Made by a program: the position numbers and the translations under genes
Shown: positions 9,376 through 64,000 of the stretch, in pieces
Position numbering within the stretch: position 1 is the first letter of the stretch
Layout: each line of letters opens with the position of its first letter
IMG/VR virus record: IMGVR_UViG_650716067_000001
Reading direction: 5' to 3' (one strand)
Length of the DNA: 64,000 bases
From: a virus
The notes under the pieces: model-generated
Database searches by the model: none
Seen by the model: only the letters and a program-made list of their open reading frames with translations
Told to the model about the DNA's origin: nothing

Positions 9376-10352
9376 TCGATGCTGAATTCAGCTTGCGATT
9401 CCGCTATTTCGCGCGCACGAATCTTGGCTTGCTCTTCTGCTGATGGCTCGAATGATTCTTTTGATTGAATTTCTTCGGCTTTGATTTCTGGTTTGTCTTG
9501 TTCGATTTGTTGCTGCGTAGCTGGCTCATCTTTCAATATTTCGCCAGCTTCTGCATCAACAATATTTGACTCAATATCGCTGGATTCAGGTTTTGAAGGT
9601 TTCAGAGAATCAATATCAACAGAGTAGCCGCCGTGCCCGTCTGGTGAGGCATCTATTACCCTTGCATCCTGTATTTCTTCAACGGTTTGCAAACCCATTA
9701 GCAATTCGGGCGCGTAGAGTTTCCCGAAGAAACTAGCTGTGCGGTAGCGAAGCATGACTTCATCCATGGTTTTCCATTTGCTGCCGTTCTTGCTATACCA
9801 GCCTTCTTGAACCGCCATTTCAATAGTGACCGGAGGGGACTCTATGCGCTCACCAGTACCTTTCTCAATCGCCCATGCGACACATACTTTGTCTTGAATT
9901 TTTTCGGTTATAGTTTTGGTTTTCTTTTCTCGGTTTTCCCAATAGGTTGAAACATAGTCGACTGATTTTTTACCAATCTGCTTAATATCGAATCGCAGAG
10001 GCGAGAATCTTCCACAGCCATTGATTGCAGCGATAATCCATTGCGATGACCAGCTTGGCCTTCCTTCAACCACATAAAGGTTTTGCATTACCATCAGCGG
10101 ATCAGCATTCATTCGATGCGACATATTGAGCGCTACAACACAATTGGCCAGAGCGTTAGGATTCGGTCCTTTCTTTTCATCATTTGCACGATAGGCAGCA
10201 GGAACTAATGTGCTGGTTATCAGTAGTTTTGCTGTGCGTTGCATCAGCTCGAAAGATTGCAGCGATCCGAATCCTGGTGTTATTTCAGGCATCCTAGATT
10301 CTGCAGGTTGTGGGGTTTTTAAATCCCCAAGTTTTGCCGTTGTTTCATTCAT
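9372..10352 (-). CDS. RecT-like single-strand annealing protein
   Basis: ANCVVALNMSHRMNADPLMVMQNLYVVEGRPSWSSQ; MLRYRTASFFG; acidic C-terminus; adjacent to exonuclease. Confidence 0.7.
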   Translation of the reverse strand: MNETTAKLGDLKTPQPAESRMPEITPGFGSLQSFELMQRTAKLLITSTLVPAAYRANDEKKGPNPNALANCVVALNMSHRMNADPLMVMQNLYVVEGRPSWSSQWIIAAINGCGRFSPLRFDIKQIGKKSVDYVSTYWENREKKTKTITEKIQDKVCVAWAIEKGTGERIESPPVTIEMAVQEGWYSKNGSKWKTMDEVMLRYRTASFFGKLYAPELLMGLQTVEEIQDARVIDASPDGHGGYSVDIDSLKPSKPESSDIESNIVDAEAGEILKDEPATQQQIEQDKPEIKAEEIQSKESFEPSAEEQAKIRAREIAESQAEFSID

Positions 10353-37103: not shown

Positions 37104-37952
37104 ATGCCTATATCTACACCAATGATTCAGTATTCCCTCAAAGACAGGGGGCGAAAGCATACCGGGCAGGCGCGTAATTTCAATACTAAATTGATATGCG
37201 ACGCTATTAATAGCCCAGCTTGTCAGGAAATGGTTTCATCCCGTGGGATGGTGGGATATTACGGCCATTTCCCGCGCGTGCGCTTTGGCATGATGCCATC
37301 GGAGGGCGGTATGGATGGCGGCAAGTATGTGCCGGTCGATCCCGCATTCGTTACCACACACCTGAGCGCAACACCAGAGGGAATCATCCGGCATCAGGCT
37401 GAATTCCTGGATACCGCAGCGGGAATAATTGCGGCTAAGGCATGGAATGGCAGGGTTGGCGGGTTTTCTTCCGCGATTGATGAGAAAAAGCCAGCGTTCT
37501 ACGGTTTTGACTACGTGATGCAGCCGAATTACCTGGGCAATTCTTTCCGTGGCGTGGTTTTGGATGATGTCATGGGCGGCAATTTAGGTGAGCTGACTTA
37601 CGACGACATCTACGCGGCTGAGCAAGACGAGCAGAAACAAGCAATGGTTATGCTGCTGGATAGCTTGGATCGTGAGCGCAACGTTTCCAGCGAAACAATA
37701 GAGCGGTTGCAGCAAGAAAACGAGCAATTGCTATCGATGCTGGCAAAGAAAGGTATCGACCCTTCCATGGTGCTTGATGCGTCTTATATTGCGCCCATCA
37801 TGGTATCCGGTGGAACGCTTGATTCAATCCAGCGGGATATGGAAAGTTTCAAAAACATGGATTCGTTACCAGGTTTTGTTTCCCCCGTGAAAGAGGTAAA
37901 GGAAGAAGCCGGTTCTGTTGTCAGTCGCATGCTTAATAGATTTGCACGGTAG
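37104..37952 (+). CDS. Prohead protease / head-processing protein, P1 Pro-like
   Basis: GYYGH, HQAEFLDT..G, GGFSS, GFDYV..PNY. Confidence 0.75.
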   Translation: MPISTPMIQYSLKDRGRKHTGQARNFNTKLICDAINSPACQEMVSSRGMVGYYGHFPRVRFGMMPSEGGMDGGKYVPVDPAFVTTHLSATPEGIIRHQAEFLDTAAGIIAAKAWNGRVGGFSSAIDEKKPAFYGFDYVMQPNYLGNSFRGVVLDDVMGGNLGELTYDDIYAAEQDEQKQAMVMLLDSLDRERNVSSETIERLQQENEQLLSMLAKKGIDPSMVLDASYIAPIMVSGGTLDSIQRDMESFKNMDSLPGFVSPVKEVKEEAGSVVSRMLNRFAR

Positions 37953-47565: not shown

Positions 47566-47606
47566 CGGAAAATCCACCAAATTCCATCAACACAATTTAG
47601 CACAAT
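47566..47606 (+). promoter_or_regulatory. Late promoter motif CGGAAAA-N28-CACAAT
   Basis: Direct count. Confidence 0.75.
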
Positions 47607-55140: not shown

Positions 55141-55647
55141 ATGAATGATTACGGGCAAATGATTGGCCGTTACCCGGCGATTGTTAAATCATATGACAAG
55201 AATAAACGAACATGCCGTGTCGAGATACCTGCTCTTACTAATGGTGGAGATGTATTCCCAGAAGCTGAGATTGATTATCCGATAGGAGATAAATCAATAT
55301 CAGGAGCGCACTCTACCGAAATAGAAATCAATCCTGGTGATACTGTTTGGGTTGAATTTATTGGTGCTGATGCTCGGTACCCGATCATTATTAGTTATCG
55401 AAATCCACGGGTTGGAAACTCAGTTGATTATCGTCGCTTTCACCACGCAAACATAGAAATGACAGCCGATGGGACATTGAAGCTTAATGCAGCCACGCTT
55501 GAGATTAACGCTGCCACCGTGACTATTAATGGAACCAACACAACCATCAATGGCAGTTCACTGAAACATAACAGCAAAAATATCGGTGATACGCATACGC
55601 ATGGGGGCGTTACGCCGGGATCAAGCAGTACAGATGTGCCAAGTTGA
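55141..55647 (+). CDS. Baseplate central spike, GpV-like
   Basis: OB-fold RCRVEIP, beta-helix repeats, apex THTHGGV. Confidence 0.85.
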   Translation: MNDYGQMIGRYPAIVKSYDKNKRTCRVEIPALTNGGDVFPEAEIDYPIGDKSISGAHSTEIEINPGDTVWVEFIGADARYPIIISYRNPRVGNSVDYRRFHHANIEMTADGTLKLNAATLEINAATVTINGTNTTINGSSLKHNSKNIGDTHTHGGVTPGSSSTDVPS

Positions 55648-55650
55648 TAT

Positions 55651-55691
55651 CGTAAAAGCATCGATTTTGGGTGTTTTTGCTGGTGTATTCT
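55651..55691 (+). promoter_or_regulatory. Late promoter variant CGTAAAA-N28-TATTCT
   Basis: Direct count; one mismatch in box. Confidence 0.6.
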
Positions 55692-55728
55692 GGATATCAC
55701 TTACTTGCATAAATATGAGTTAACAAAC

Positions 55729-56214
55729 ATGAAATCTTTACTATTCAGTTTCGCTGATCTTTCAGTCAAGGACAAGGCCGCAAAAGAAGCCATGAAATAC
55801 TTCTCTCGCGCTGGTGCGAATGTCGTTCAGCAAGACGTATCGACAGCAGTTAAGCGTAATTCCGGGGTAAGTTACCGGGAAATGCTGCTGACTTTTGCAG
55901 ACTCTCAGAAAGTTGTGCTGCGAATCAAACAGACCGGCGATATCTTCCAAGTTCTACTGAATAACAAATTACTACCAATTAGAAACCAGGATGATCACGT
56001 TGCCGCAATCGCTGAGATTGTGAAGGCGATGGACTCCGGGCGTTCAAAGTTCCAGAAACTACTTGCTGCAGCAAAGGTTCGGCCACCCGCAGGAATACGC
56101 ACGGCGGCACCCAAGATGGAGCAAGTATTGATTGGGAAAAGGGATGCTTTGAAAGCGGCGATTGCCGAAGTCAGAGCGGAAATAGCAACATACACAGGAG
56201 CGTTAACAGCATGA
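55729..56214 (+). CDS. Hdf/DarA N-terminal-domain-like protein
   Basis: LTFADSQKVVLRIKQTGDIFQVLLNNK aligns by eye to ELSDGQTVSIYFH...WLLNKK of next large gene. Confidence 0.6.
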   Translation: MKSLLFSFADLSVKDKAAKEAMKYFSRAGANVVQQDVSTAVKRNSGVSYREMLLTFADSQKVVLRIKQTGDIFQVLLNNKLLPIRNQDDHVAAIAEIVKAMDSGRSKFQKLLAAAKVRPPAGIRTAAPKMEQVLIGKRDALKAAIAEVRAEIATYTGALTA

Positions 56215-56681
56215 AGAATTTTTTTAGTGGGTCTCTTTTATTGGTTTTTTGTATGATGACATTACTATCCGCTTGCGATTCGGTATATGCCGATACTGTG
56301 ATCAAGCCGGATTCGGTGATTAAGGTTCACGATGGTGATACGTTCACCGTCAATATTGCTGGTTGCCCAGATGTTTTGTGCAAGAGCATGCCGGTACGAA
56401 TAAGCGGAATCGATGCTCCGGAAATGAAGGGGAAATGCCCTCAAGAAATTGCCGGGGCGATTGCTGCTAAAAATTATCTTGCTGGCCAGGTAATGAATGC
56501 CCAGGATGTTGCGTTACACGATCCAACCAGAGATAAGTATTTCCGGATAAGCGCTCATGTTATGGTGAATGGCGTTAATGTCGGTGATGAAATGATCAAG
56601 CAAGGATTGGCGCGAACGTACAGCGGGGGCAAGCGAGCCGGGTGGTGTGGCAGTACCGTAGTACAAACAAACTCAGTCTGA
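56211..56681 (+). CDS. Thermonuclease (SNase-like) lipoprotein
   Basis: Lipobox LLSAC; VHDGDT, VRISGIDAPE, DKYFR, GLARTY. Confidence 0.9.
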   Translation: MKNFFSGSLLLVFCMMTLLSACDSVYADTVIKPDSVIKVHDGDTFTVNIAGCPDVLCKSMPVRISGIDAPEMKGKCPQEIAGAIAAKNYLAGQVMNAQDVALHDPTRDKYFRISAHVMVNGVNVGDEMIKQGLARTYSGGKRAGWCGSTVVQTNSV

Positions 56682-56712
56682 ATATCTGGTTAACACAGCC
56701 AGAAAGAAATAG

Positions 56713-56744
56713 ACAAGCCCGGTTATGCCGGGCTTTGTTTTTTT
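56713..56744 (+). terminator. Intrinsic terminator
   Basis: AAGCCCGG-ttatg-CCGGGCTT then T-tract. Confidence 0.75.
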
Positions 56745-56756
56745 ACCATCGCTTCA

Positions 56757-56797
56757 CGGAAAACCCACCAAATACAGTGCTGTGAGCGGCTTAACAT
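56757..56797 (+). promoter_or_regulatory. Late promoter motif CGGAAAA-N28-TAACAT (darA-like operon)
   Basis: Direct count. Confidence 0.75.
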
Positions 56798-56804
56798 GCT
56801 GCTT

Positions 56805-58661
56805 ATGACACACTCAACTGATACCACATTTCTAAACATCGAAAACGCTGCCCATGGTGGCGCTTTTGGTAAGAATCCTATTCCCGAACCCACGGAAGCG
56901 CAGTGCAAGGCCGGTAACTACAAAATGGGAAGAGTCTCTTTCCAGGGTCTCTCGATAGCCATAGAGCAGCCGCGCGGCACCTATCGAAACGGTATTGATT
57001 CAAAGACCGGCAAGCGCTGGACTTCTCGCATGGCAGCGCATTATGGCTATATCAGCGGCACCAAGGGCGCAGATGGTGACGGTATTGATTGTTTTGTGGG
57101 GCCGTATCCGCAGTCTGAGATTGCATACGCTATCAATCAGTATATCGATGGCCGCTTCGATGAACACAAAATCATGCTGGCTTTCCCGGATGAAGAAACA
57201 GCGAGAAATGCTTATCTGCATAGCTATGAGCGCGGCTGGAAGGGTCTTAAAAGCATAATTCCACTATCGATTAATCAACTCAAATGGTGGCTCAAGCACG
57301 GCAATAAGAGCCAGCCTATCAAATTAGAAAATTTACCACCGGAAGGATTAGAAGCCATGACAAGAAAAGTGCATTGGGATGAAAACGCGCAGCCATATAA
57401 CGCCACTATCGATCAGGTTCTGTATGAGATACGGCAATCAGATTCGGGCGAAAACCTGCTATTGGATGCTGTTAGCATCGCTGAAATTATTGCTGATTCT
57501 GACGGTGTTCTGGCGCTTGATGCGCTGGTTACGCCTTACATCAAACTGCAACGCAAAATGGAAGTATTGCAGGGCGTTATGGAGCGTATGGGCACGGGAA
57601 TTAAACCTGTAGCTATGCAAATAACCGAGCCATTCAAGCAATTTGGCGTGGCGAATGTGGCTGTGGTTTATGAGCTATCAGACGGGCAAACCGTATCGAT
57701 CTATTTTCACAACCCTGATGCAACACCAGCAAAGCTGTCACCGAATGATGATGTTATTTCTTACAAATGGCTGTTAAACAAGAAAGATATCACGATTGTT
57801 GTGGCACCTGAGCGCGGCCAGGATCTGAATATCCGTGAAGTGGCGCGCCGCATCCTGAAACTGGCTGAAAAGAACAGCCCGGCTTTTGCTCGTGCAAATG
57901 CAAAGCGTGTGGATCGTATGCAGAACATTCAATCGTTGAAGGATGAAATTGTAGTTTTGGAGGGCGAATTGAAAAGCGCGCAGAATGAATTGGAAATTGC
58001 CAAGGTTGCTGCTGAAGATCGAAAACCAGAGGATACAAAACCGCCAATCCTTCCAGAAACCGATTTCAACGTGGACATAGCATCGTTGATCGAAGCGTTG
58101 CCGGGGCTTGATGGCTATGGCATAACCAGTCTGATTATTCGCACAAATGGCGAAATAAATGCAGTTAGCGGCCATGACATCAAGGCATCTGGCGTAACTG
58201 ATGCAGATATTCTAGCTGCTTATGGTAAGGGATTGTTGCGTGAGGCTGCGGCGGATCAATCAACGGGTGGCACAGATAACCAAACTGTAGCTGAAGAATC
58301 GCAAAACCCATCACCCCAAGAAGATGATCTGACAAAGACCGCAGAACAACCTGATGCAGGGACTGATACGGACGTTCCAACTACGTCGAATTCGACAGAA
58401 TTAAACCCTGTCGCTTCGGAAATCGAAGTCCCACCAGCTTCTGAAATAGAAGCCGAATCCGAAGATATGAAGGCGGCCAGAGAATTCCTTAAATCGGTCG
58501 TGGATGGTGACAAAGACACGGATGATCTAATAGCCTTGTTGGATAAGATCGAAGCATCTGCCAATGCGATTATTGAAGCCGGTAAGGGTGAAGAATTTGA
58601 TGCTCTTATAGGTTCCGCCGCTGAAAAATGGGCGGAACTTGACAAGCAAGCGAACGGGTAG
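56805..58661 (+). CDS. darA: DarA-like internal head protein with N-terminal inorganic-pyrophosphatase-like domain
   Basis: GNYKMGR..IAIEQPRG...YGYISGTKGADGDGIDCFVGP; DarA-N-like middle; acidic linker; helical C-terminus. Confidence 0.7.
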   Translation: MTHSTDTTFLNIENAAHGGAFGKNPIPEPTEAQCKAGNYKMGRVSFQGLSIAIEQPRGTYRNGIDSKTGKRWTSRMAAHYGYISGTKGADGDGIDCFVGPYPQSEIAYAINQYIDGRFDEHKIMLAFPDEETARNAYLHSYERGWKGLKSIIPLSINQLKWWLKHGNKSQPIKLENLPPEGLEAMTRKVHWDENAQPYNATIDQVLYEIRQSDSGENLLLDAVSIAEIIADSDGVLALDALVTPYIKLQRKMEVLQGVMERMGTGIKPVAMQITEPFKQFGVANVAVVYELSDGQTVSIYFHNPDATPAKLSPNDDVISYKWLLNKKDITIVVAPERGQDLNIREVARRILKLAEKNSPAFARANAKRVDRMQNIQSLKDEIVVLEGELKSAQNELEIAKVAAEDRKPEDTKPPILPETDFNVDIASLIEALPGLDGYGITSLIIRTNGEINAVSGHDIKASGVTDADILAAYGKGLLREAAADQSTGGTDNQTVAEESQNPSPQEDDLTKTAEQPDAGTDTDVPTTSNSTELNPVASEIEVPPASEIEAESEDMKAAREFLKSVVDGDKDTDDLIALLDKIEASANAIIEAGKGEEFDALIGSAAEKWAELDKQANG

Positions 58662-58667
58662 CCCGCC

Positions 58668-59039
58668 ATGCGTACCTTATCCAAGATTCTGCGGGCTGAT
58701 GATCAAAATAGCCAGCTTTCTTTTATGTGCCCTGGGTGCAAACAAGTTCATATCATTAAGCATGGTGATGGTTCCGGTCCAAGATGGGCATGGAACGGTG
58801 ATGTTGAAAAGCCAACATTCGCGCCGTCAATTCTAGTACGGGGCAAAACACTTACAGATAAGGGTAATCGTGATATTGAAGATTGGCGCGAAGCTGGTTG
58901 CCCAAAGGGAGATCAACCGTTCGAGTCGGTAGCAAGAGTCTGCCATTCATTCGTTACCCACGGACAGATTCAATTCCTGGCTGATTCAACCCATGAGTTG
59001 GCCGGTCAAACTGTCGATTTACCGGAGTTCACAGAATGA
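58668..59039 (+). CDS. DUF6527-like Zn-binding protein
   Basis: CPGC...H; WNGDVEKPTFAPSIL; CHSFVTHGQIQFLADSTHELAGQTVDLP. Confidence 0.75.
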   Translation: MRTLSKILRADDQNSQLSFMCPGCKQVHIIKHGDGSGPRWAWNGDVEKPTFAPSILVRGKTLTDKGNRDIEDWREAGCPKGDQPFESVARVCHSFVTHGQIQFLADSTHELAGQTVDLPEFTE

Positions 59040-60919
59040 TTGCCGGTGCAGAAAAACTCAAACTGATACGCGAGCTTGGGGTTATCCGCAAAAACCTGCC
59101 AGATGTTGCCGGGGTAAATAAACTTACTCTGGTCAAGCGCGTGCGCGAGATACGGAAATTGCTGTCAGTATCAAACATTGAGCCTGCTGTTAGCCTGCTA
59201 ATAGATCCATCTAAACCTATTGAATCAATCGATTCGCTGACCAATTACCTGCGTAATGGCCTTTCTGCGATTCATGAAGCATTGCGTGGCGCTGAAGCCG
59301 ATACCTTGATAAAAATATACAACTTACTGCCAAAAGATCGAAGTGACGAACATGCAGATGTCAGAAATGATCTTTTGGCGGCTGTTACAGAAGTTGTAGG
59401 TAGCGATAAAGATAAATGGGCGTTTGCATCATTCGATCACTTCAAATCATCTGGTAATGTGTTTGATGTTGATTCTCAGGCGATTATTTCGGTTTTAGAG
59501 TCAGTGGATGCGCTCACCAAAACCGCGCCAGAAGATACGCCGGAAATTGCTGCGCAAAGAAAAGCGGCTGATGAGGAATACGACAGACTGCAAGATGCTT
59601 TAGCAAAGTTGCTAGGAATAAATGCAGCCAATGGATACAGCAAGGAAGAGATAGACAAGGCTGCTGACGAGTATGAAGCAACCAGGGCAAAGAAAAACGA
59701 AGTGTGGGGGCAGATTAGAGGTTTAAGTGAAAAGAAATACGATGATCATAAAAAGCGCATTGCCGAATTAAAGGACAGTATTGCCCCTGTCGGTCAAAAG
59801 ATCATAGATACCCTGCTGAATAGCTCAAAAGTGACTCAGGAGCAGGCGGATTCATGGGCGAGTAGTCAAATAATCGAAAAATCGGCTATTACCCGGCTAA
59901 AGAAAATGGGATATCCAGAAGCTGATATACGCCGCGATATGTCTGAATTCTACCGCATCACTGGGGGCAAACTCAGGCAAGTTAGATTAGAGACCAATGG
60001 AAGCAAGCGCGCCAATGCGAGCGGCATAGGTCATTTCGAGGATAGCGTTATCCGTCCAGGAAGCGAATTCAATAAAAAAATATTGTGGCATGAAATGGCT
60101 CATCATCTTGAGGCTGATTCAGCGGCTAAAGCGGCATCCAATGGATATCTGCTGAAAAGAAGAAAGAGCGAGAAAGTGTATTCCCTTAAATCGTTGACTC
60201 GCAACCCAGGCTATAAAAGCAACGAGGGCGCATATGATGATAATTTTATCGATCATTACATCGGCAAGGTGTATCCAGATAAAACTACTGAAGTATGGTC
60301 TATGGGAATCCAATATCTTGCAACCCCACAGGATGCCGCGATGATGGCTGCCAAAGATCCGGAAATGGCGGCATTGATGGCTGGATATCTTCAGGCCGAT
60401 CTAACCCCTGCCATGAAAGCGCTTCAAACTATTCAGGATAGCGCTAAGGATAAAGCCCAAGAAAAACGTGATCAATTCAAAAGCGAATATGAGCAGGCAT
60501 TGGATAAGTTGTCAGCAGGTATTGAGATTGTTGATGACGGCTGGTTTGATGCGCTAGATCCTGTTGACCAAGGAAATTTACTTAGCAGCTGGGGGATGAG
60601 AGACCCAAATGCAAAATTCATTGGATCTTGGGAAAATTATCGAGTGTTCGCCGGGAAGTTTCGAGGCAAAACAAAGCGGGTTAGTAAGGGATATGCGGTT
60701 GTTTATACCAGACAGTCCGGCACATTCCTAATTCCTGGCAGTACATCAAGAGAAATTCCTTCCGCTTTTTCTGTGCATGGTGATATGCGGGAAGTGAGAG
60801 CTTTTATCAAGCTAGCACAAATGTTCGGTGATGATCCTCGCTTCGTTCGCTGGAATGTCTATGGTGATGAAGGCAGGATAATTCGGGAAGCAAATAAATT
60901 ATCGGGTGAACAATCATGA
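59036..60919 (+). CDS. Putative injected polyvalent protein with zincin HExxH metallopeptidase domain
   Basis: ILWHEMAHHLE; TEVWSMGIQ. Confidence 0.7.
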   Translation: MIAGAEKLKLIRELGVIRKNLPDVAGVNKLTLVKRVREIRKLLSVSNIEPAVSLLIDPSKPIESIDSLTNYLRNGLSAIHEALRGAEADTLIKIYNLLPKDRSDEHADVRNDLLAAVTEVVGSDKDKWAFASFDHFKSSGNVFDVDSQAIISVLESVDALTKTAPEDTPEIAAQRKAADEEYDRLQDALAKLLGINAANGYSKEEIDKAADEYEATRAKKNEVWGQIRGLSEKKYDDHKKRIAELKDSIAPVGQKIIDTLLNSSKVTQEQADSWASSQIIEKSAITRLKKMGYPEADIRRDMSEFYRITGGKLRQVRLETNGSKRANASGIGHFEDSVIRPGSEFNKKILWHEMAHHLEADSAAKAASNGYLLKRRKSEKVYSLKSLTRNPGYKSNEGAYDDNFIDHYIGKVYPDKTTEVWSMGIQYLATPQDAAMMAAKDPEMAALMAGYLQADLTPAMKALQTIQDSAKDKAQEKRDQFKSEYEQALDKLSAGIEIVDDGWFDALDPVDQGNLLSSWGMRDPNAKFIGSWENYRVFAGKFRGKTKRVSKGYAVVYTRQSGTFLIPGSTSREIPSAFSVHGDMREVRAFIKLAQMFGDDPRFVRWNVYGDEGRIIREANKLSGEQS

Positions 60920-62373
60920 TGAATAGCGTTTATAAAGTTTTTACGCCTGCCGGTCAATTCGATGCGATCTTCGCTGAAGATGAGGATATTCCACTCGAAT
61001 ACAGTGGTGATGAACCGGCTATTAGTTTTTTTAAAGACTGGTTATTCATCAATCAGGTAAGCGGCGAACACGGCCACTTGCTGGATAGCGAAAACCTTAC
61101 ACCCAGAGATCTATACGGATTCTGCCAGCCACGCGGTGGCGTAATTGAAGTGATGCCGCCATTCGAGGATCTACTGGCATACATCCAGGAAGATGCCGCG
61201 AACCAAGCTGAAGATAACTTTGAACAACTACAGGAAGAAAATACTATGCATACCCTCATTACCAATGATTCTGCAATCCTTGACGATGTGGTGAAAATTA
61301 TTGGTGATGCAACACTAGATGGCATATCCGGTATTGAAAAAATAAAGCTGATTAAGGAGGCCGGAAGCATCCGCGCAAATCTGCAAACCGTTCAATCCGG
61401 AATCGAGAAGCATAAGATGGTTAAACGTATCAAGGAAATTCGTGATGCTTTGGGTGTTGGTGATGGATTAGGCAAAGACGGACTTGACGCTGATGGAATG
61501 TGGCCAATGACCAGAGCGGAGTATGACAAGATTCACAGCGACTACAAGGGAGCCTTCCCGGATGGCACGCCTACAGCGCTCAAACTGATTAACGGCGGAA
61601 CTTCTATTGTGCCCGTGCGAATCACTGATGAGCAGCCGAAAGCTCAAGAGCCAGAGGTAAAGCCGCAAGTCACCATAGAAGATGTTAACAAAGTCATGCC
61701 GCTGTTAAAACAGTTCATCGGCAAGGCTCAGTTATCTGCAATCGGAATGGGTATTCGTGGCGAGGAAGGTCAATTTTTCAAGGATAAGTTGATCGAGATT
61801 GCCAACGTAATCCAAACCATGCCAAAAACATACGGTCAGGATGGTATGGGCGATAAGGCGATTGCCTATCTGCACTATTTCAAAGGCGCAGGCGACTGGC
61901 ATATTACCGAAAAGGATATGGAAGATGAGCAATTGCAGGCGTTCGGGCTTGCAAATATTGGTTACGGCGGCGAACTTGGTTATATCAGCATTCAGGAATT
62001 GATTGATGCCGGTGTTGAGCTTGATTTGTATTGGACTCCCAAAACTATTGGGGAGATTAAGGGTGGAAGTAGTGAGGATGAAAACCAGGGCACTGAAACT
62101 GGTGGTGATGAAACCGGTGGTGAATCAACAGAAATCCCGCAATCCACCGAAGAGCCTCAGACTATAACGCCAGCTGATACCATAAAAGCCGGATTCGTGG
62201 CCGAACTTGAAGCCCTAAAATCCGAAACCGATATCAACCGATTCAACGAACGACTTGATGAAATTGCGGCGAGGATCGAGCAAGCCGGTTTGATGGAATC
62301 GCTTGATAAAGAATTGAATGATGCGGCGGATGTGCTAACGCGCCTGCTATACGAGGCTGAGAAAGGCGTTTAA
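60916..62373 (+). CDS. Putative injected polyvalent protein with DUF2958-like domain
   Basis: YLHYF...WHITE...AFGLANIGYGGELGYISIQEL...ELDLYWTPKTIGEI; acidic linker; helical C-terminus. Confidence 0.65.
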   Translation: MMNSVYKVFTPAGQFDAIFAEDEDIPLEYSGDEPAISFFKDWLFINQVSGEHGHLLDSENLTPRDLYGFCQPRGGVIEVMPPFEDLLAYIQEDAANQAEDNFEQLQEENTMHTLITNDSAILDDVVKIIGDATLDGISGIEKIKLIKEAGSIRANLQTVQSGIEKHKMVKRIKEIRDALGVGDGLGKDGLDADGMWPMTRAEYDKIHSDYKGAFPDGTPTALKLINGGTSIVPVRITDEQPKAQEPEVKPQVTIEDVNKVMPLLKQFIGKAQLSAIGMGIRGEEGQFFKDKLIEIANVIQTMPKTYGQDGMGDKAIAYLHYFKGAGDWHITEKDMEDEQLQAFGLANIGYGGELGYISIQELIDAGVELDLYWTPKTIGEIKGGSSEDENQGTETGGDETGGESTEIPQSTEEPQTITPADTIKAGFVAELEALKSETDINRFNERLDEIAARIEQAGLMESLDKELNDAADVLTRLLYEAEKGV

Positions 62374-62404: not shown

Positions 62405-63115
62405 TTAAGCGGGGCTTGGCTTTAGCGTACATGCTTCTACTAAGCTTCTCCCCAAGACAGCTGGATAAATGTGGCCAAATAATTGGCCTCCTCCCCATGT
62501 GGTTGGTAGTGAGATGCAACCTAAGCGTGCGAGGTTTGCTAAGGCAAGTATAACTTCTGCATTTGGTGGTATAGGTTGCGCTCTATTATCTTCATCATGG
62601 ATTACTATTTCAGATGGTAAATTTGTTGTTATAAGTAACTTATTACTAATGTCGCCCTCTGGTAGTGCATAGATAACCGATAATATCTTTGCTTCTAAAT
62701 TGGAGAGCCTCTCCAAGATGTCAATGTGTGTGCGATTAAGATCAATAGGACCGTTCTCAATAGTGGAATTAACAAGCAATTTTGCCCATAAATCCTGCAA
62801 ATAATCGTCATCTTCAAGCGAAGCAGCCTCAAATAAAGGAATGGCAAGTTTTAAAGGTATTGGTTTAATTGGAGTATCAATGCCGATACTATTCATAAGG
62901 GTTCTTGTTTTCTGTATAAAACTCACCTGCCTTTCCAAACGCATATATTTTAATTTGTCCTCATATATTCCAATGGCTTGTTCTAATGGACCAGATATGA
63001 AACGCGAAATGAAGCCACCCACTTCCTTACTTGCTTCGATAGCTTGCCCGGTTGTTTTTGCTACTTCTTGAACTGCTTTAGCAGTTTCTTTCACAGCTTC
63101 AATTTCTTCTGTCAT
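62405..63115 (-). CDS. Abi-alpha / DUF4393-like protein
   Basis: IPLKLAIPLFEAASLEDDDYLQDLWAKLLVNS...IDILERLSNLEAKIL. Confidence 0.7.
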   Translation of the reverse strand: MTEEIEAVKETAKAVQEVAKTTGQAIEASKEVGGFISRFISGPLEQAIGIYEDKLKYMRLERQVSFIQKTRTLMNSIGIDTPIKPIPLKLAIPLFEAASLEDDDYLQDLWAKLLVNSTIENGPIDLNRTHIDILERLSNLEAKILSVIYALPEGDISNKLLITTNLPSEIVIHDEDNRAQPIPPNAEVILALANLARLGCISLPTTWGGGQLFGHIYPAVLGRSLVEACTLKPSPA

Positions 63116-63208: not shown

Positions 63209-63598
63209 CTAACCATGTAACGCCAATTTAGCAATAAATCCTGAGCGAGATTCCCCAGCCTCTTTCGCCGCCGCATCGATACGACGAAGTACGCGCGATG
63301 GAAGCGTGATATTTATGCGCTCAACCTTATCCGATAATTCGGCCAGATCAATTGTGACGACTGCCCAGACCCAGCCTTTGTATTCAGGATTGGCTTGATG
63401 CTCACTGATGCTTTTAGGGTGAGGCACAGAGCCGCCATCATCAATTACGGTTTCTAACCACAATTCAATTGCTTCTTTTGCTTTATCGATTGCTTCATCA
63501 ATCGTATCGCCCGCAGAAAAACAGCCTGGAAGATCAGGAACGACCACGCCGAAAGCGTGCTTGTCATCACCAGGTTCAATTGCTATTGGATATCTCAT
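63209..63598 (-). CDS. hicB: HicB antitoxin
   Basis: YPIAIE...FGVVVPDLPGCFSAGDTIDEA; C-terminal RHH RINITLP. Confidence 0.93.
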   Translation of the reverse strand: MRYPIAIEPGDDKHAFGVVVPDLPGCFSAGDTIDEAIDKAKEAIELWLETVIDDGGSVPHPKSISEHQANPEYKGWVWAVVTIDLAELSDKVERINITLPSRVLRRIDAAAKEAGESRSGFIAKLALHG

Positions 63599-63846: not shown

Positions 63847-63887
63847 CGGAAAACCAAGCAAATTGAGGGCTGTAGCGTCTCTATGAT
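63847..63887 (+). promoter_or_regulatory. Late promoter motif CGGAAAA-N28-TATGAT for a gene continuing beyond the window
   Basis: Direct count. Confidence 0.7.
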
Positions 63888-64000
63888 GATGGTCATAAAT
63901 TGCCATCATCAGGACGTTAACAATGATTTCTTTCGCAGAAAAAAGAAAAATACAAAGCACAATATTAGAACAAAACAAGATTCTTTCCAGCAATCCATCG

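Follow-up and report, generated by a model that had tools for sequence, protein, structure and literature searches.

A putative re-tooled P1-type Dar capsid-cargo system in an Rb1-like prophage

The key question raised by positions 55,729 to 62,373 of the virus record IMGVR_UViG_650716067_000001, analyzed here as a window of 64,000 nucleotides, is whether its six adjacent genes form a system of the kind known as Dar in phage P1, and how much of the P1 design they retain. To our knowledge, work on Dar has been limited to P1 and its close relatives. In P1 the Dar proteins demonstrably protect against type I restriction; all six are present in the virion, the protease Pro removes residues 1-69 of DarA, and 55 DarA-Hdf pairs line the capsid (PMC9024508, PMC12810830). 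We consider it likely that the locus is a complete but re-tooled P1-type Dar capsid-cargo and anti-restriction system, whose proteins, by homology with P1, would be packaged and ejected. Its category is a familiar one, that of anti-restriction cargo systems; the new parts are an InPase domain in the slot of a propeptide, a shared cargo tag and a phage BubE-type peptidase.

The homologies to P1 extend across the locus and beyond its right end (Table 1). All six plus-strand genes listed in a first-pass annotation of this DNA (Hdf-like, SNase, InPase-DarA_N, DUF6527, HExxH and DUF2958-like) are present where it had placed them, each with a significant family match, and its description of the module as Dar-like is upheld by homologs of P1 Hdf, the DarA core, the C-terminal zincin of DdrB, DarB and Ulx. 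The Hdf-like protein is 29% identical to P1 Hdf (BLAST, 2.7e-8) and 73% identical to the homolog in Xanthomonas phage Rb1 (PQ569993; 91 kb, temperate), which is the closest sequenced phage. Residues 284-407 of the DarA-like protein are 36% identical to P1 DarA 128-262 (BLAST, 1.5e-20), and residues 248-435 of the 627-aa zincin protein are 26% identical to P1 DdrB 771-971 (BLAST, 1e-12). Hdf and DarA are thus a paralogous DarA_N pair encoded together, as in a P1-type Dar system. The annotation had also pointed to the DNA right of position 63,900 as a place where a DarB-like methylase/helicase might lie, and a 2133-aa open reading frame (ORF) of this type does begin at 63,923, followed by a Ulx homolog. 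The DarB-like protein has Eco57I, SNF2, ResIII and Helicase_C domains, matches phrog_11801 and the DarB-like phrog_10089, and is 27-37% identical to P1 DarB (1e-60 and 1.5e-68); the Ulx-like protein is 33% identical to P1 Ulx (1.7e-11).

The genes are tightly packed and under selection. The darA, DUF6527, zincin and 485-aa genes are separated by 6-nt gaps or joined by 4-nt overlaps, and the order hdf-darA-(small gene)-zincin matches that of the P1 record, which is lydA-lydB-hdf-darA-ddrA-ddrB with darB-ulx elsewhere. Measured against four orthologous loci, all six genes are under purifying selection, with ratios of nonsynonymous to synonymous substitution (dN/dS) of 0.01-0.30. Comparison of 33 related loci gives baseplate-spike-Hdf-InPase/DarA_N...DarB-Ulx as the conserved core. 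Only loci of the Nitrosomonas clade have the SNase, a zincin encoded separately and the 485-aa protein; DUF6527 recurs in a single other locus (L027), and the neighboring Abi_alpha gene in none.

Table 1. Features of the locus and its surroundings. Positions are those of the window; for features that run past its right end, window-continued positions are given together with those in L003, the stretch of chromosome that continues the window on its right.
Feature	Position	Strand	Description
Pro-like prohead protease	37104-37952
17-nt box, copy before PmgB-like morphogenesis gene	47566-47582		~40 nt upstream
Candidate hdf-SNase promoter	55682-55714	+	GGTGTATTCTGG, 16-nt spacer, TAAATA-like -10
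Hdf-like protein, 161 aa	55729-56214	+	DarA_N 1.2e-19; phrog_1620 "Hdf-like antirestriction" 3.6e-38
SNase-family nuclease	56211-56681	+	PF00565 7.8e-11; start overlaps hdf stop by 4 nt
Intrinsic terminator	56715-56744	+	9-bp GC-rich stem (hairpin 56715-56735), loop of 3, T-run; ends hdf-SNase unit
17-nt box CGGAAAACCCACCAAAT	56757-56773	+	39 nt before darA ATG; candidate promoter or operator
DarA-like protein, 621 aa	56796-58661	+	InPase 34-167 (5e-52); DarA_N 240-361 (5.8e-46)
Putative BubE-type (DUF6527) Ser/His peptidase with zinc knuckle, 123 aa	58668-59039	+	PF20137 1.2e-11, 44.7 bits vs cut-off 23.6; phrog_3362 1.7e-36
Zincin metallopeptidase protein, 627 aa	59036-60919	+	HEMAH 352-356 (single); P1 DdrB C-terminal homology
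Modular 485-aa protein	60916-62373	+	DUF2958 22.7 bits vs cut-off 21; phrog_5203 3e-23
Abi_alpha-family protein	62405-63115	-	PF14337 9.6e-19; PADLOC PDC-S47 1.4e-8, candidate defense
HicB antitoxin	63209-63598	-	HicB_lk_antitox 5e-57
HicA toxin	63609 to ~63800 (listed ORF to 63896)	-	HicA_toxin 3e-20, residues 39-94
17-nt box copy CGGAAAACCAAGCAAAT	63847-63863	+	Two mismatches; 76 nt before darB ATG
DarB-like protein, 2133 aa	63923 to 70324 (window-continued; L003 ORF 1923-8324)	+	N6-adenine methylase + SNF2/ResIII helicase
Ulx-like protein	70339-70755 (window-continued; L003 8339-8755)		Directly after darB; phrog_1629 1.5e-23

The carrier of the module is an integrated, ~90-kb Rb1-like temperate myovirus prophage with a P1-lineage capsid. 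That it is an integrated prophage follows from the location of the window, which corresponds to positions 1,504,725-1,568,724 of a complete 3.78-Mb chromosome. The host is very probably Nitrosomonas, because the nearest relatives of the DarA-like protein (94, 84 and 72% identity) all fall in Nitrosomonas metagenome-assembled genomes; further relatives are found in Pseudothauera, Burkholderia, Pigmentiphaga, Comamonas, Collimonas and Propionivibrio. Gene order in the structural cluster follows that of Rb1, with amino-acid identities of 45-67%, over a stretch that begins at about position 2,170 and extends past 75,500 (window-continued), and the Dar module is embedded in its baseplate/tail-fiber part. 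The major capsid protein matches 24 of 50,697 phage records, with Rb1 first (53%), then almost exclusively gp23 of the P1/P7 group (27%, E 1e-16), and more weakly Cronobacter and Acinetobacter phages. Genes for the portal, a Pro-like protease, a PmgG-like protein, sheath, tube and baseplate are likewise of P1 type, the portal and Pro homologs being ~25% identical to their P1 counterparts. Judging from these relationships, the element belongs to the P1 structural lineage, as a distant member that integrates into the chromosome. A Megablast search of the 6.7-kb locus against phages and plasmids gave zero matches.

The first of the new parts is found in the DarA-like protein, for which an alternative ATG at 56805 is equally possible. 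Its InPase domain is followed by a conserved linker (residues 168-239), the DarA_N domain, a coiled coil to ~410, an acidic low-complexity region and C-terminal helices. The Hdf-like protein, for which ortholog alignment indicates a true ATG at 55729, consists of a DarA_N domain and a C-terminal helical region, and is the predicted partner of DarA on the inner capsid surface. The InPase match to PF18823 spans the whole profile (positions 1-135 of 135), and E57, D68, D93, D95, D98, D122, E123 and K125, which include the motif D93xD95xxD98, are invariant in 11 orthologs. When the domain profile was compared with solved structures, its YGY...DGDxxD segment aligned to the family I pyrophosphatase signature, 12 of the 15 matches being pyrophosphatases, each of them weak (E 0.07-1). 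Because the acidic residues are invariant and align to this signature, the active site looks intact, and the domain is probably an active phosphohydrolase acting on pyrophosphate or a nucleotide. The best solved relative is the C-terminal domain of the Pa193 portal (PDB 9b41; ~50% identity, E 1e-37), which lacks density in the map and faces the capsid interior.

The InPase-DarA_N architecture is standard in every clade of the Rb1-like group, with C-terminal extensions that range from none to 1,200 extra residues (LPD3, DUF2958-like domain), and a P1-style DarA without InPase occurs in one related locus only. In P1 DarA, residues 70-382, which remain after proteolysis, bind hexon, penton and Hdf. 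On alignment, the P1 propeptide with its cut region falls between InPase and DarA_N of the present protein (residues ~185-243), and we infer that InPase occupies the slot of the propeptide that is cleaved from P1 DarA.

The 627-aa protein encoded further downstream has a helical tag (residues 2-47), a long helical region, a zincin domain (~267-457) and a C-terminal alpha/beta domain (500-627). It is 36% identical to the "M12B-like" protein of Rb1 and belongs to a family of 46 homologs that is conserved over the full length and has no Pfam model; within this family, H352, E353, H356, E359, E397, E419 and D441 are invariant. In an AlphaFold model of the protein (pLDDT 89), a wide VIA search returned mostly generic helical hairpins. 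With VIA-align and the full-length model, the sole non-hairpin match in the top list placed residues 267-457 on PPEP-3 (9g0j_A; Z 9.3, rmsd 3.4, 150 aligned residues). Foldseek found nothing in the PDB at E <= 0.001 for the models of the 627-aa and 485-aa proteins, and a PDB sequence search with the zincin, 485-aa and DUF6527 proteins found nothing meaningful. The P1 annotation labels DdrB a "possible metallopeptidase", and in passages of Iyer et al. (PMC5512222) the C-terminal region of DdrB is assigned as a metallopeptidase (MPTase) and the MPTases of polyvalent proteins are linked to anthrax lethal factor, with which the match to PPEP-3, an M34-type Pro-Pro endopeptidase, agrees. Because the HExxH region is homologous to the DdrB C terminus, the metallopeptidase appears to be a P1 feature rather than a departure from P1. 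The first-pass view of a domain set unlike that of P1 therefore holds in part: the metallopeptidase is common to P1 DdrB and the InPase-DarA_N fusion is usual in the Rb1-like group, but InPase, SNase, BubE-like and DUF2958-like parts have been added, and DarA_C, DdrB-ParB and DdrA are missing.

The 485-aa protein is modular, with an alpha/beta domain (residues 1-95), a linker, a tag (139-181), a small beta domain (196-237), a DUF2958-like domain (254-382), an acidic linker and a C-terminal three-helix bundle, which are strung in the model as beads on a string. The DUF2958 match is partial and lies just above the cut-off (profile positions 27-79 of 111), and the call is corroborated by 97 of 100 Atlas neighbors. 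Rb1 has a 1221-aa DarA-like "internal head protein" whose residues 902-1025 match this domain at 56% identity; there, as in L016 and L017, the domain is covalently part of the DarA-like protein. Among relatives of the 485-aa protein, parts of it occur in fusion with ClpP, DarA_N, DdrB-ParB, SNF2 and methylase domains, a part-swapping that seems to be polyvalent-cargo behavior.

The tag is the feature that connects these proteins. The matching segments, residues 2-47 in the zincin protein and 137-183 in the 485-aa protein, are 51% identical (3e-14). Each copy is a helical hairpin of ~45 aa with an internal EKLKL...IR repeat, and in both families the tag ranks with the best-conserved parts. When a profile was made from 79 copies, it matched the extreme N terminus of the DarB-like giants of eight related loci (E ~1e-5) and also other proteins encoded downstream of DarA. 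In P1, the first 30 residues of DarB suffice as a capsid-targeting signal; the P1 authors suspected a signal common to the cargo, and BLAST gave none. We put forward the hypothesis that the tag may act as a docking or capsid-targeting signal for Dar cargo.

Two observations on Rb1 concern the same modules. At Rb1 55467-55940, just upstream of the "M12B-like" gene and in another frame, there is an unannotated frame of 158 codons that matches the tag profile (E 1.5e-5), which may mean that the start was wrongly called, that a frameshift occurred or that the record has a sequencing error. In addition, the N-terminal ~100 aa of Rb1 DarB resemble, by eye, the alpha/beta domain (4-95) of the 485-aa protein; if real, this would be another module that moves between cargo proteins.

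The third new part is the DUF6527 protein, whose gene is wedged between the darA and zincin genes, is translationally coupled to both and has a dN/dS of 0.19. DUF6527 is the family of BubE, a Ser/His protease of Bub operons that has a zinc knuckle and cuts ubiquitin-like conjugates at peptide and isopeptide bonds (PMC11601596); the catalytic dyad of Citrobacter BubE is S92/H102. As genuine references we used BubE from a Type I Bub operon in a genome of the same genus (L048, G017) and from a Type II operon in one of the same order (L049, G023). In the alignment with these, C21, G23, C24, W40, P53, S54, H93 and G99 are invariant, and the S54/H93 dyad, which is invariant in 33 phage-type members, aligns with the "TPS" serine and the histidine of both. 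In the zinc site, C21, C24 and C92 are invariant; the fourth cysteine (107 in most members) is a serine here, for which C78 may substitute. The protein thus appears to be a BubE-family member that lies outside a Bub system. The phage-type solo family comprises at least 1404 clusters, and its contexts include Mu-like head modules (beside MuF and prohead-protease genes), a T4-like replication module and a site next to an endolysin gene; ubiquitin-like (Ubl), E1-like and E2-like neighbors were found neither here nor in four other phage contexts. Among 18 other same-genus genomes searched, one has a DUF6527 match. No phage-borne BubE is mentioned in the literature searched. The possibility that the protein was a DdrA homolog was considered and rejected, as the two have no BLAST similarity and belong to different PHROG families; P1 DdrA has no Pfam family. 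An attractive possibility is that the BubE-like protein would be a late-expressed de-conjugase that protects virion proteins, while a rival role would be that of a processing protease.

Two side observations on Bub and DUF6527 genes may be of use to others. Each of the two reference Bub operons is directly preceded by a large gene for a Peptidase_M78-UvrD helicase-PD-(D/E)XK nuclease, which may be part of the Bub system. UniRef names two small DUF6527 homologs (P0238, P0259) "Ammonia monooxygenase", an evident annotation error that is spreading in nitrifier genomes.

With regard to expression, the locus is divided by a strong intrinsic terminator. Its hairpin, behind the SNase gene, is kept in the orthologous loci L010, L024 and L027 and parts hdf-SNase from darA. 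Upstream of darA is a 17-nt box, CGGAAAAYCCACCAAAT, of which the window holds five matches at <=3 mismatches against 0.41 expected, a number reached in 0 of 100 shuffles. The box is conserved at three sites, before darA, darB and the PmgB-like morphogenesis gene, in the Nitrosomonas-clade loci L008, L009, L010, L024 and L027, and the darB copy is identical in L008, L009, L010 and L027, including loci without hicAB. The shared box appears to tie the darA and darB units to the control of the structural genes, and it is from this sharing that "late" expression is deduced. The first-pass annotation had placed the module under two late promoters, which the data do not bear out: the P1 late-promoter -22 box, AAGTNACTT, has 18 matches against 10.3 expected and is not enriched, and the sole good look-alike is not conserved. 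This look-alike of P1 LPdar, upstream of hdf at 55698-55719, reads CACTTACTT-GCA-TAAATA (P1, AAGTTACTT-TGCA-TACCAT); its -22-like part is not kept in L024 and L027, and it is probably fortuitous. In the candidate hdf-SNase promoter, the 12-mer GGTGTATTCTGG is identical in five orthologous loci, with variable flanks. As a recurrent late box the 12-mer was rejected, since the window has just one exact copy and shows no enrichment of copies with <=3 mismatches. L027, the closest viral contig, carries an insertion of several hundred base pairs (~9400-9950) between the SNase terminator and the darA box that is absent from the window.

A mechanism can be proposed in which packaging, cleavage, ejection and the targets of all the enzymes are extrapolated from the homologs. 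By inference from P1, Hdf and the DarA_N part of DarA would pair on the inner capsid face and form the dock for the other components. DarA would carry InPase into the procapsid as an enlarged propeptide, which would probably be freed by the Pro-like (T4-gp21-like) protease; this release is suggested by the position of InPase in place of the cleaved propeptide and by the presence of the protease homolog. The zincin and 485-aa proteins would be recruited through their shared tag, and the zincin most likely would process cargo, as has been proposed for DdrB. DarB, together with Ulx, would protect the incoming DNA in cis from type I restriction, as in P1. The BubE-like peptidase, co-expressed late, may strip ubiquitin-like conjugates from virion proteins, and the SNase lipoprotein and the Abi_alpha/HicAB islet would stand outside the Dar cargo. 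A bolder combination, which we offer as a speculation and would not ourselves expect to hold in full, is that the tag is the common Dar-cargo targeting and docking signal that P1 work missed by BLAST, which would let a polyvalent protein be split into genes whose products are packaged all the same, and that the phage BubE-type family is a viral de-conjugase that takes off the ubiquitin-like tags with which Bub/Bil-type immunity marks virion proteins. If so, phage BubE would be to bacterial viruses what deISGylases and deubiquitinases are to eukaryotic ones; the host genus does contain Bub operons.

Several points weigh against the assignment as a complete Dar system. No protein of the module has BLAST similarity to P1 DdrA, a DdrB-ParB domain is found neither in the 627-aa protein nor elsewhere in the module, and DarA_C is missing as well; in P1 the ordered loading of DarB requires DdrA and DdrB. 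The argument for packaging is one of homology throughout, at 26-37% identity to P1. Two of the six listed genes make poor candidates for cargo, as the SNase appears to be exported and the BubE-like protein is untagged and rarely present. The residue aligned with Glu68 of the P1 cut site is Asp in this lineage, so that cleavage may differ or be absent. A resemblance of the tag to the N terminus of this prophage's own DarB, first seen by eye, is unsupported (hmmsearch E 1.6; hhalign probability 0.3%), so that targeting by the tag may not be universal. Finally, the fold evidence for the zincin is moderate, given a middling Z score and the outcome of the Foldseek search.

Part of the same evidence could be read in another way, namely that the module is mainly morphogenetic. 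Hdf and DarA would then be accessory scaffolding, head-size or capsid-stabilizing proteins, and the attached enzymes would act in assembly or within the head, the zincin in maturation proteolysis and the BubE-like protein in processing, with InPase having a structural part or contacting DNA; no dedicated counter-defense would follow ejection. In P1, loss of DarA or Hdf lowers the share of normal heads from ~80% to ~15%, and the two proteins as a pair bind to the capsid as well as to DNA. Within the module, hdf shows the strongest constraint (dN/dS 0.01-0.11), a PmgB-like morphogenesis gene has the same 17-nt box as darA and darB, solo BubE-like genes sit in Mu-like head modules, and InPase is fused to portals as well. 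However, the same P1 proteins demonstrably protect against type I restriction, and a methylase-helicase of 2133 aa has no plausible role in assembly. The cargo part is also highly variable, with polyvalent domains swapped among close relatives, which is the pattern of conflict genes. A purely morphogenetic function is therefore unlikely in our view, although assembly and anti-defense roles are not exclusive.

It has also to be considered whether several of the genes (SNase, zincin, BubE-like and 485-aa) are morons expressed in the lysogen for superinfection exclusion or defense, rather than virion cargo. The SNase gene is the best candidate. The encoded protein has a basic n-region, a hydrophobic core and a lipobox LSAC with Cys22; the position of the lipobox is kept in L008, L009, L010 and L027, while its residues vary, and dN/dS is 0.17-0.27. 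The first-pass annotation had grouped this nuclease with the ejected proteins, a view from which the signal peptide and lipobox, kept in all full-length orthologs, lead away: because such a conserved lipoprotein signal implies export, the SNase would be lipid-anchored and not capsid cargo. The gene also has its own terminator and a weak PADLOC SNc match, and the module is flanked by lysogen-type genes, with Abi_alpha and HicAB on the opposite strand and a candidate HEPN_Swt1 defense gene after ulx. Against a wider application of this idea, all six genes lie on the late structural strand and are joined to Dar genes by short overlaps or very small gaps; the start of the SNase gene itself overlaps the hdf stop, and no separate conserved SNase promoter was found. 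The zincin and the DUF2958-like domain are, moreover, homologous or fused to known or presumed virion proteins (P1 DdrB; the Rb1 DarA-like protein). The moron explanation probably holds only for the SNase, and for the set of genes we judge it quite improbable. Least probable of all, and by a long way improbable, is that the prophage is defective and the module a non-functional remnant: islet insertions show the region to be plastic, but the Dar ORFs are full length relative to their orthologs and under purifying selection, and the module is therefore no decaying remnant, while the structural cluster is syntenic with that of the viable phage Rb1 and the regulatory boxes are conserved.

The Abi_alpha/HicB/HicA islet is an opposite-strand insertion between the darA and darB units and lies outside the Dar system. 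HicAB is present in L008, partly present in L009, and absent from L010 and L027. The listed hicA ORF (95 aa) is probably over-extended, with the true start further downstream, because its 5′ part overlaps the darB upstream region (63847-63922) that is kept in loci without hicA. The darA-darB junction looks like a hot spot for lysogen-expressed defense or toxin-antitoxin genes. A second variable islet follows ulx (L003 9134-10734; window-continued 71134-72734) and consists of a 336-aa HEPN_Swt1 protein (PADLOC candidate PDC-M34B, 7e-15) and an opposite-strand ORF of 142 aa, both of which are absent from Rb1 at the same position.

The locus and its roughly 30 relatives extend Dar to a distant lineage whose members integrate into the chromosome and have Betaproteobacteria and Xanthomonas as hosts, and within which Rb1, being cultivable, could serve as an experimental model. 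The lineage offers natural experiments: InPase at the slot of a cleaved propeptide, cargo that is fused to DarA in some members and separate but tagged in others, and a shared tag that is visible in the sequences. If the tag is a targeting signal, it would be a general handle for loading foreign proteins into capsids. The BubE-type peptidase hints that viruses may have a means, not described so far, of countering the ubiquitin-like immunity of bacteria.

Compared with P1, the prophage has homologs of Hdf, the DarA_N core, the C-terminal zincin of DdrB, DarB and Ulx, with darB followed by ulx, and has a P1-lineage capsid, portal and Pro-like protease. It differs in being chromosomally integrated and of a distant lineage (major capsid protein 27% identical), and in having the darA and darB units adjacent within the baseplate/tail-fiber cluster, whereas they are 7 kb apart in P1. 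DarA has gained an N-terminal InPase and has no DarA_C, the zincin has no DdrB-ParB, and the place of DdrA is taken by the putative BubE-type peptidase, with the SNase lipoprotein and the DUF2958-like protein as extras. Lpa-type late promoters are not detectable here, and the putative cargo proteins visibly have a tag in common; in P1 no such tag was found. The resemblance to Rb1 genes 49-59 is closer, since Hdf-like, InPase-DarA_N, zincin, DarB-like and Ulx-like proteins are encoded there in the same place. Rb1, in contrast, fuses the DUF2958-like domain into its DarA-like protein, has different small genes between hdf and darA, and has no SNase, BubE-like gene or Abi/HicAB islet.

The content of the module is also that of the polyvalent proteins, in whose catalog (Iyer, Burroughs, Anand, de Souza & Aravind 2017, PMC5512222) InPase, DarA-N, the zincin MPTase and the methylase-SNF2 dyad appear. 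Passages of that paper predict packaging in the virion, autoprocessing by the MPTase and hydrolysis of nucleotides or pyrophosphate by InPase, and the functional ideas of the first-pass annotation for InPase and zincin are in this sense already published. SNase and DUF2958 each have 0 occurrences in its main text, and its passages on these proteins hold no common docking tag across separate cargo proteins. In contrast to a single giant polypeptide, the content here is split into separate genes that share a tag.

Finally, three further systems are comparable in part. BubE of the Bub operons has the same Pfam family, zinc knuckle and invariant catalytic serine ("TPS") and histidine as the phage protein, whereas the latter is solo, without E1, E2 or Ubl neighbors, lacks the hydrophobic extension, and has a variable insertion of ~30 aa and an extra invariant C-terminal motif, D-C/S-T-H-x-L-A-G-Q-T. 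The portals of Pbunavirus (Pa193 gp19, PDB 9b41) carry an InPase of the same subfamily (~50% identity), likewise tethered to a virion protein on the capsid-interior side, with the portal C terminus as the partner there and the DarA N terminus here. The internal proteins IPI* and IPIII of T4 have no sequence relationship to the proteins of this module, and the dock here would presumably be a DarA-Hdf lattice rather than a scaffolding core. They are nevertheless alike in concept, as a short N-terminal signal loads them into the prohead, gp21-type proteolysis trims them, and their ejection counters restriction.

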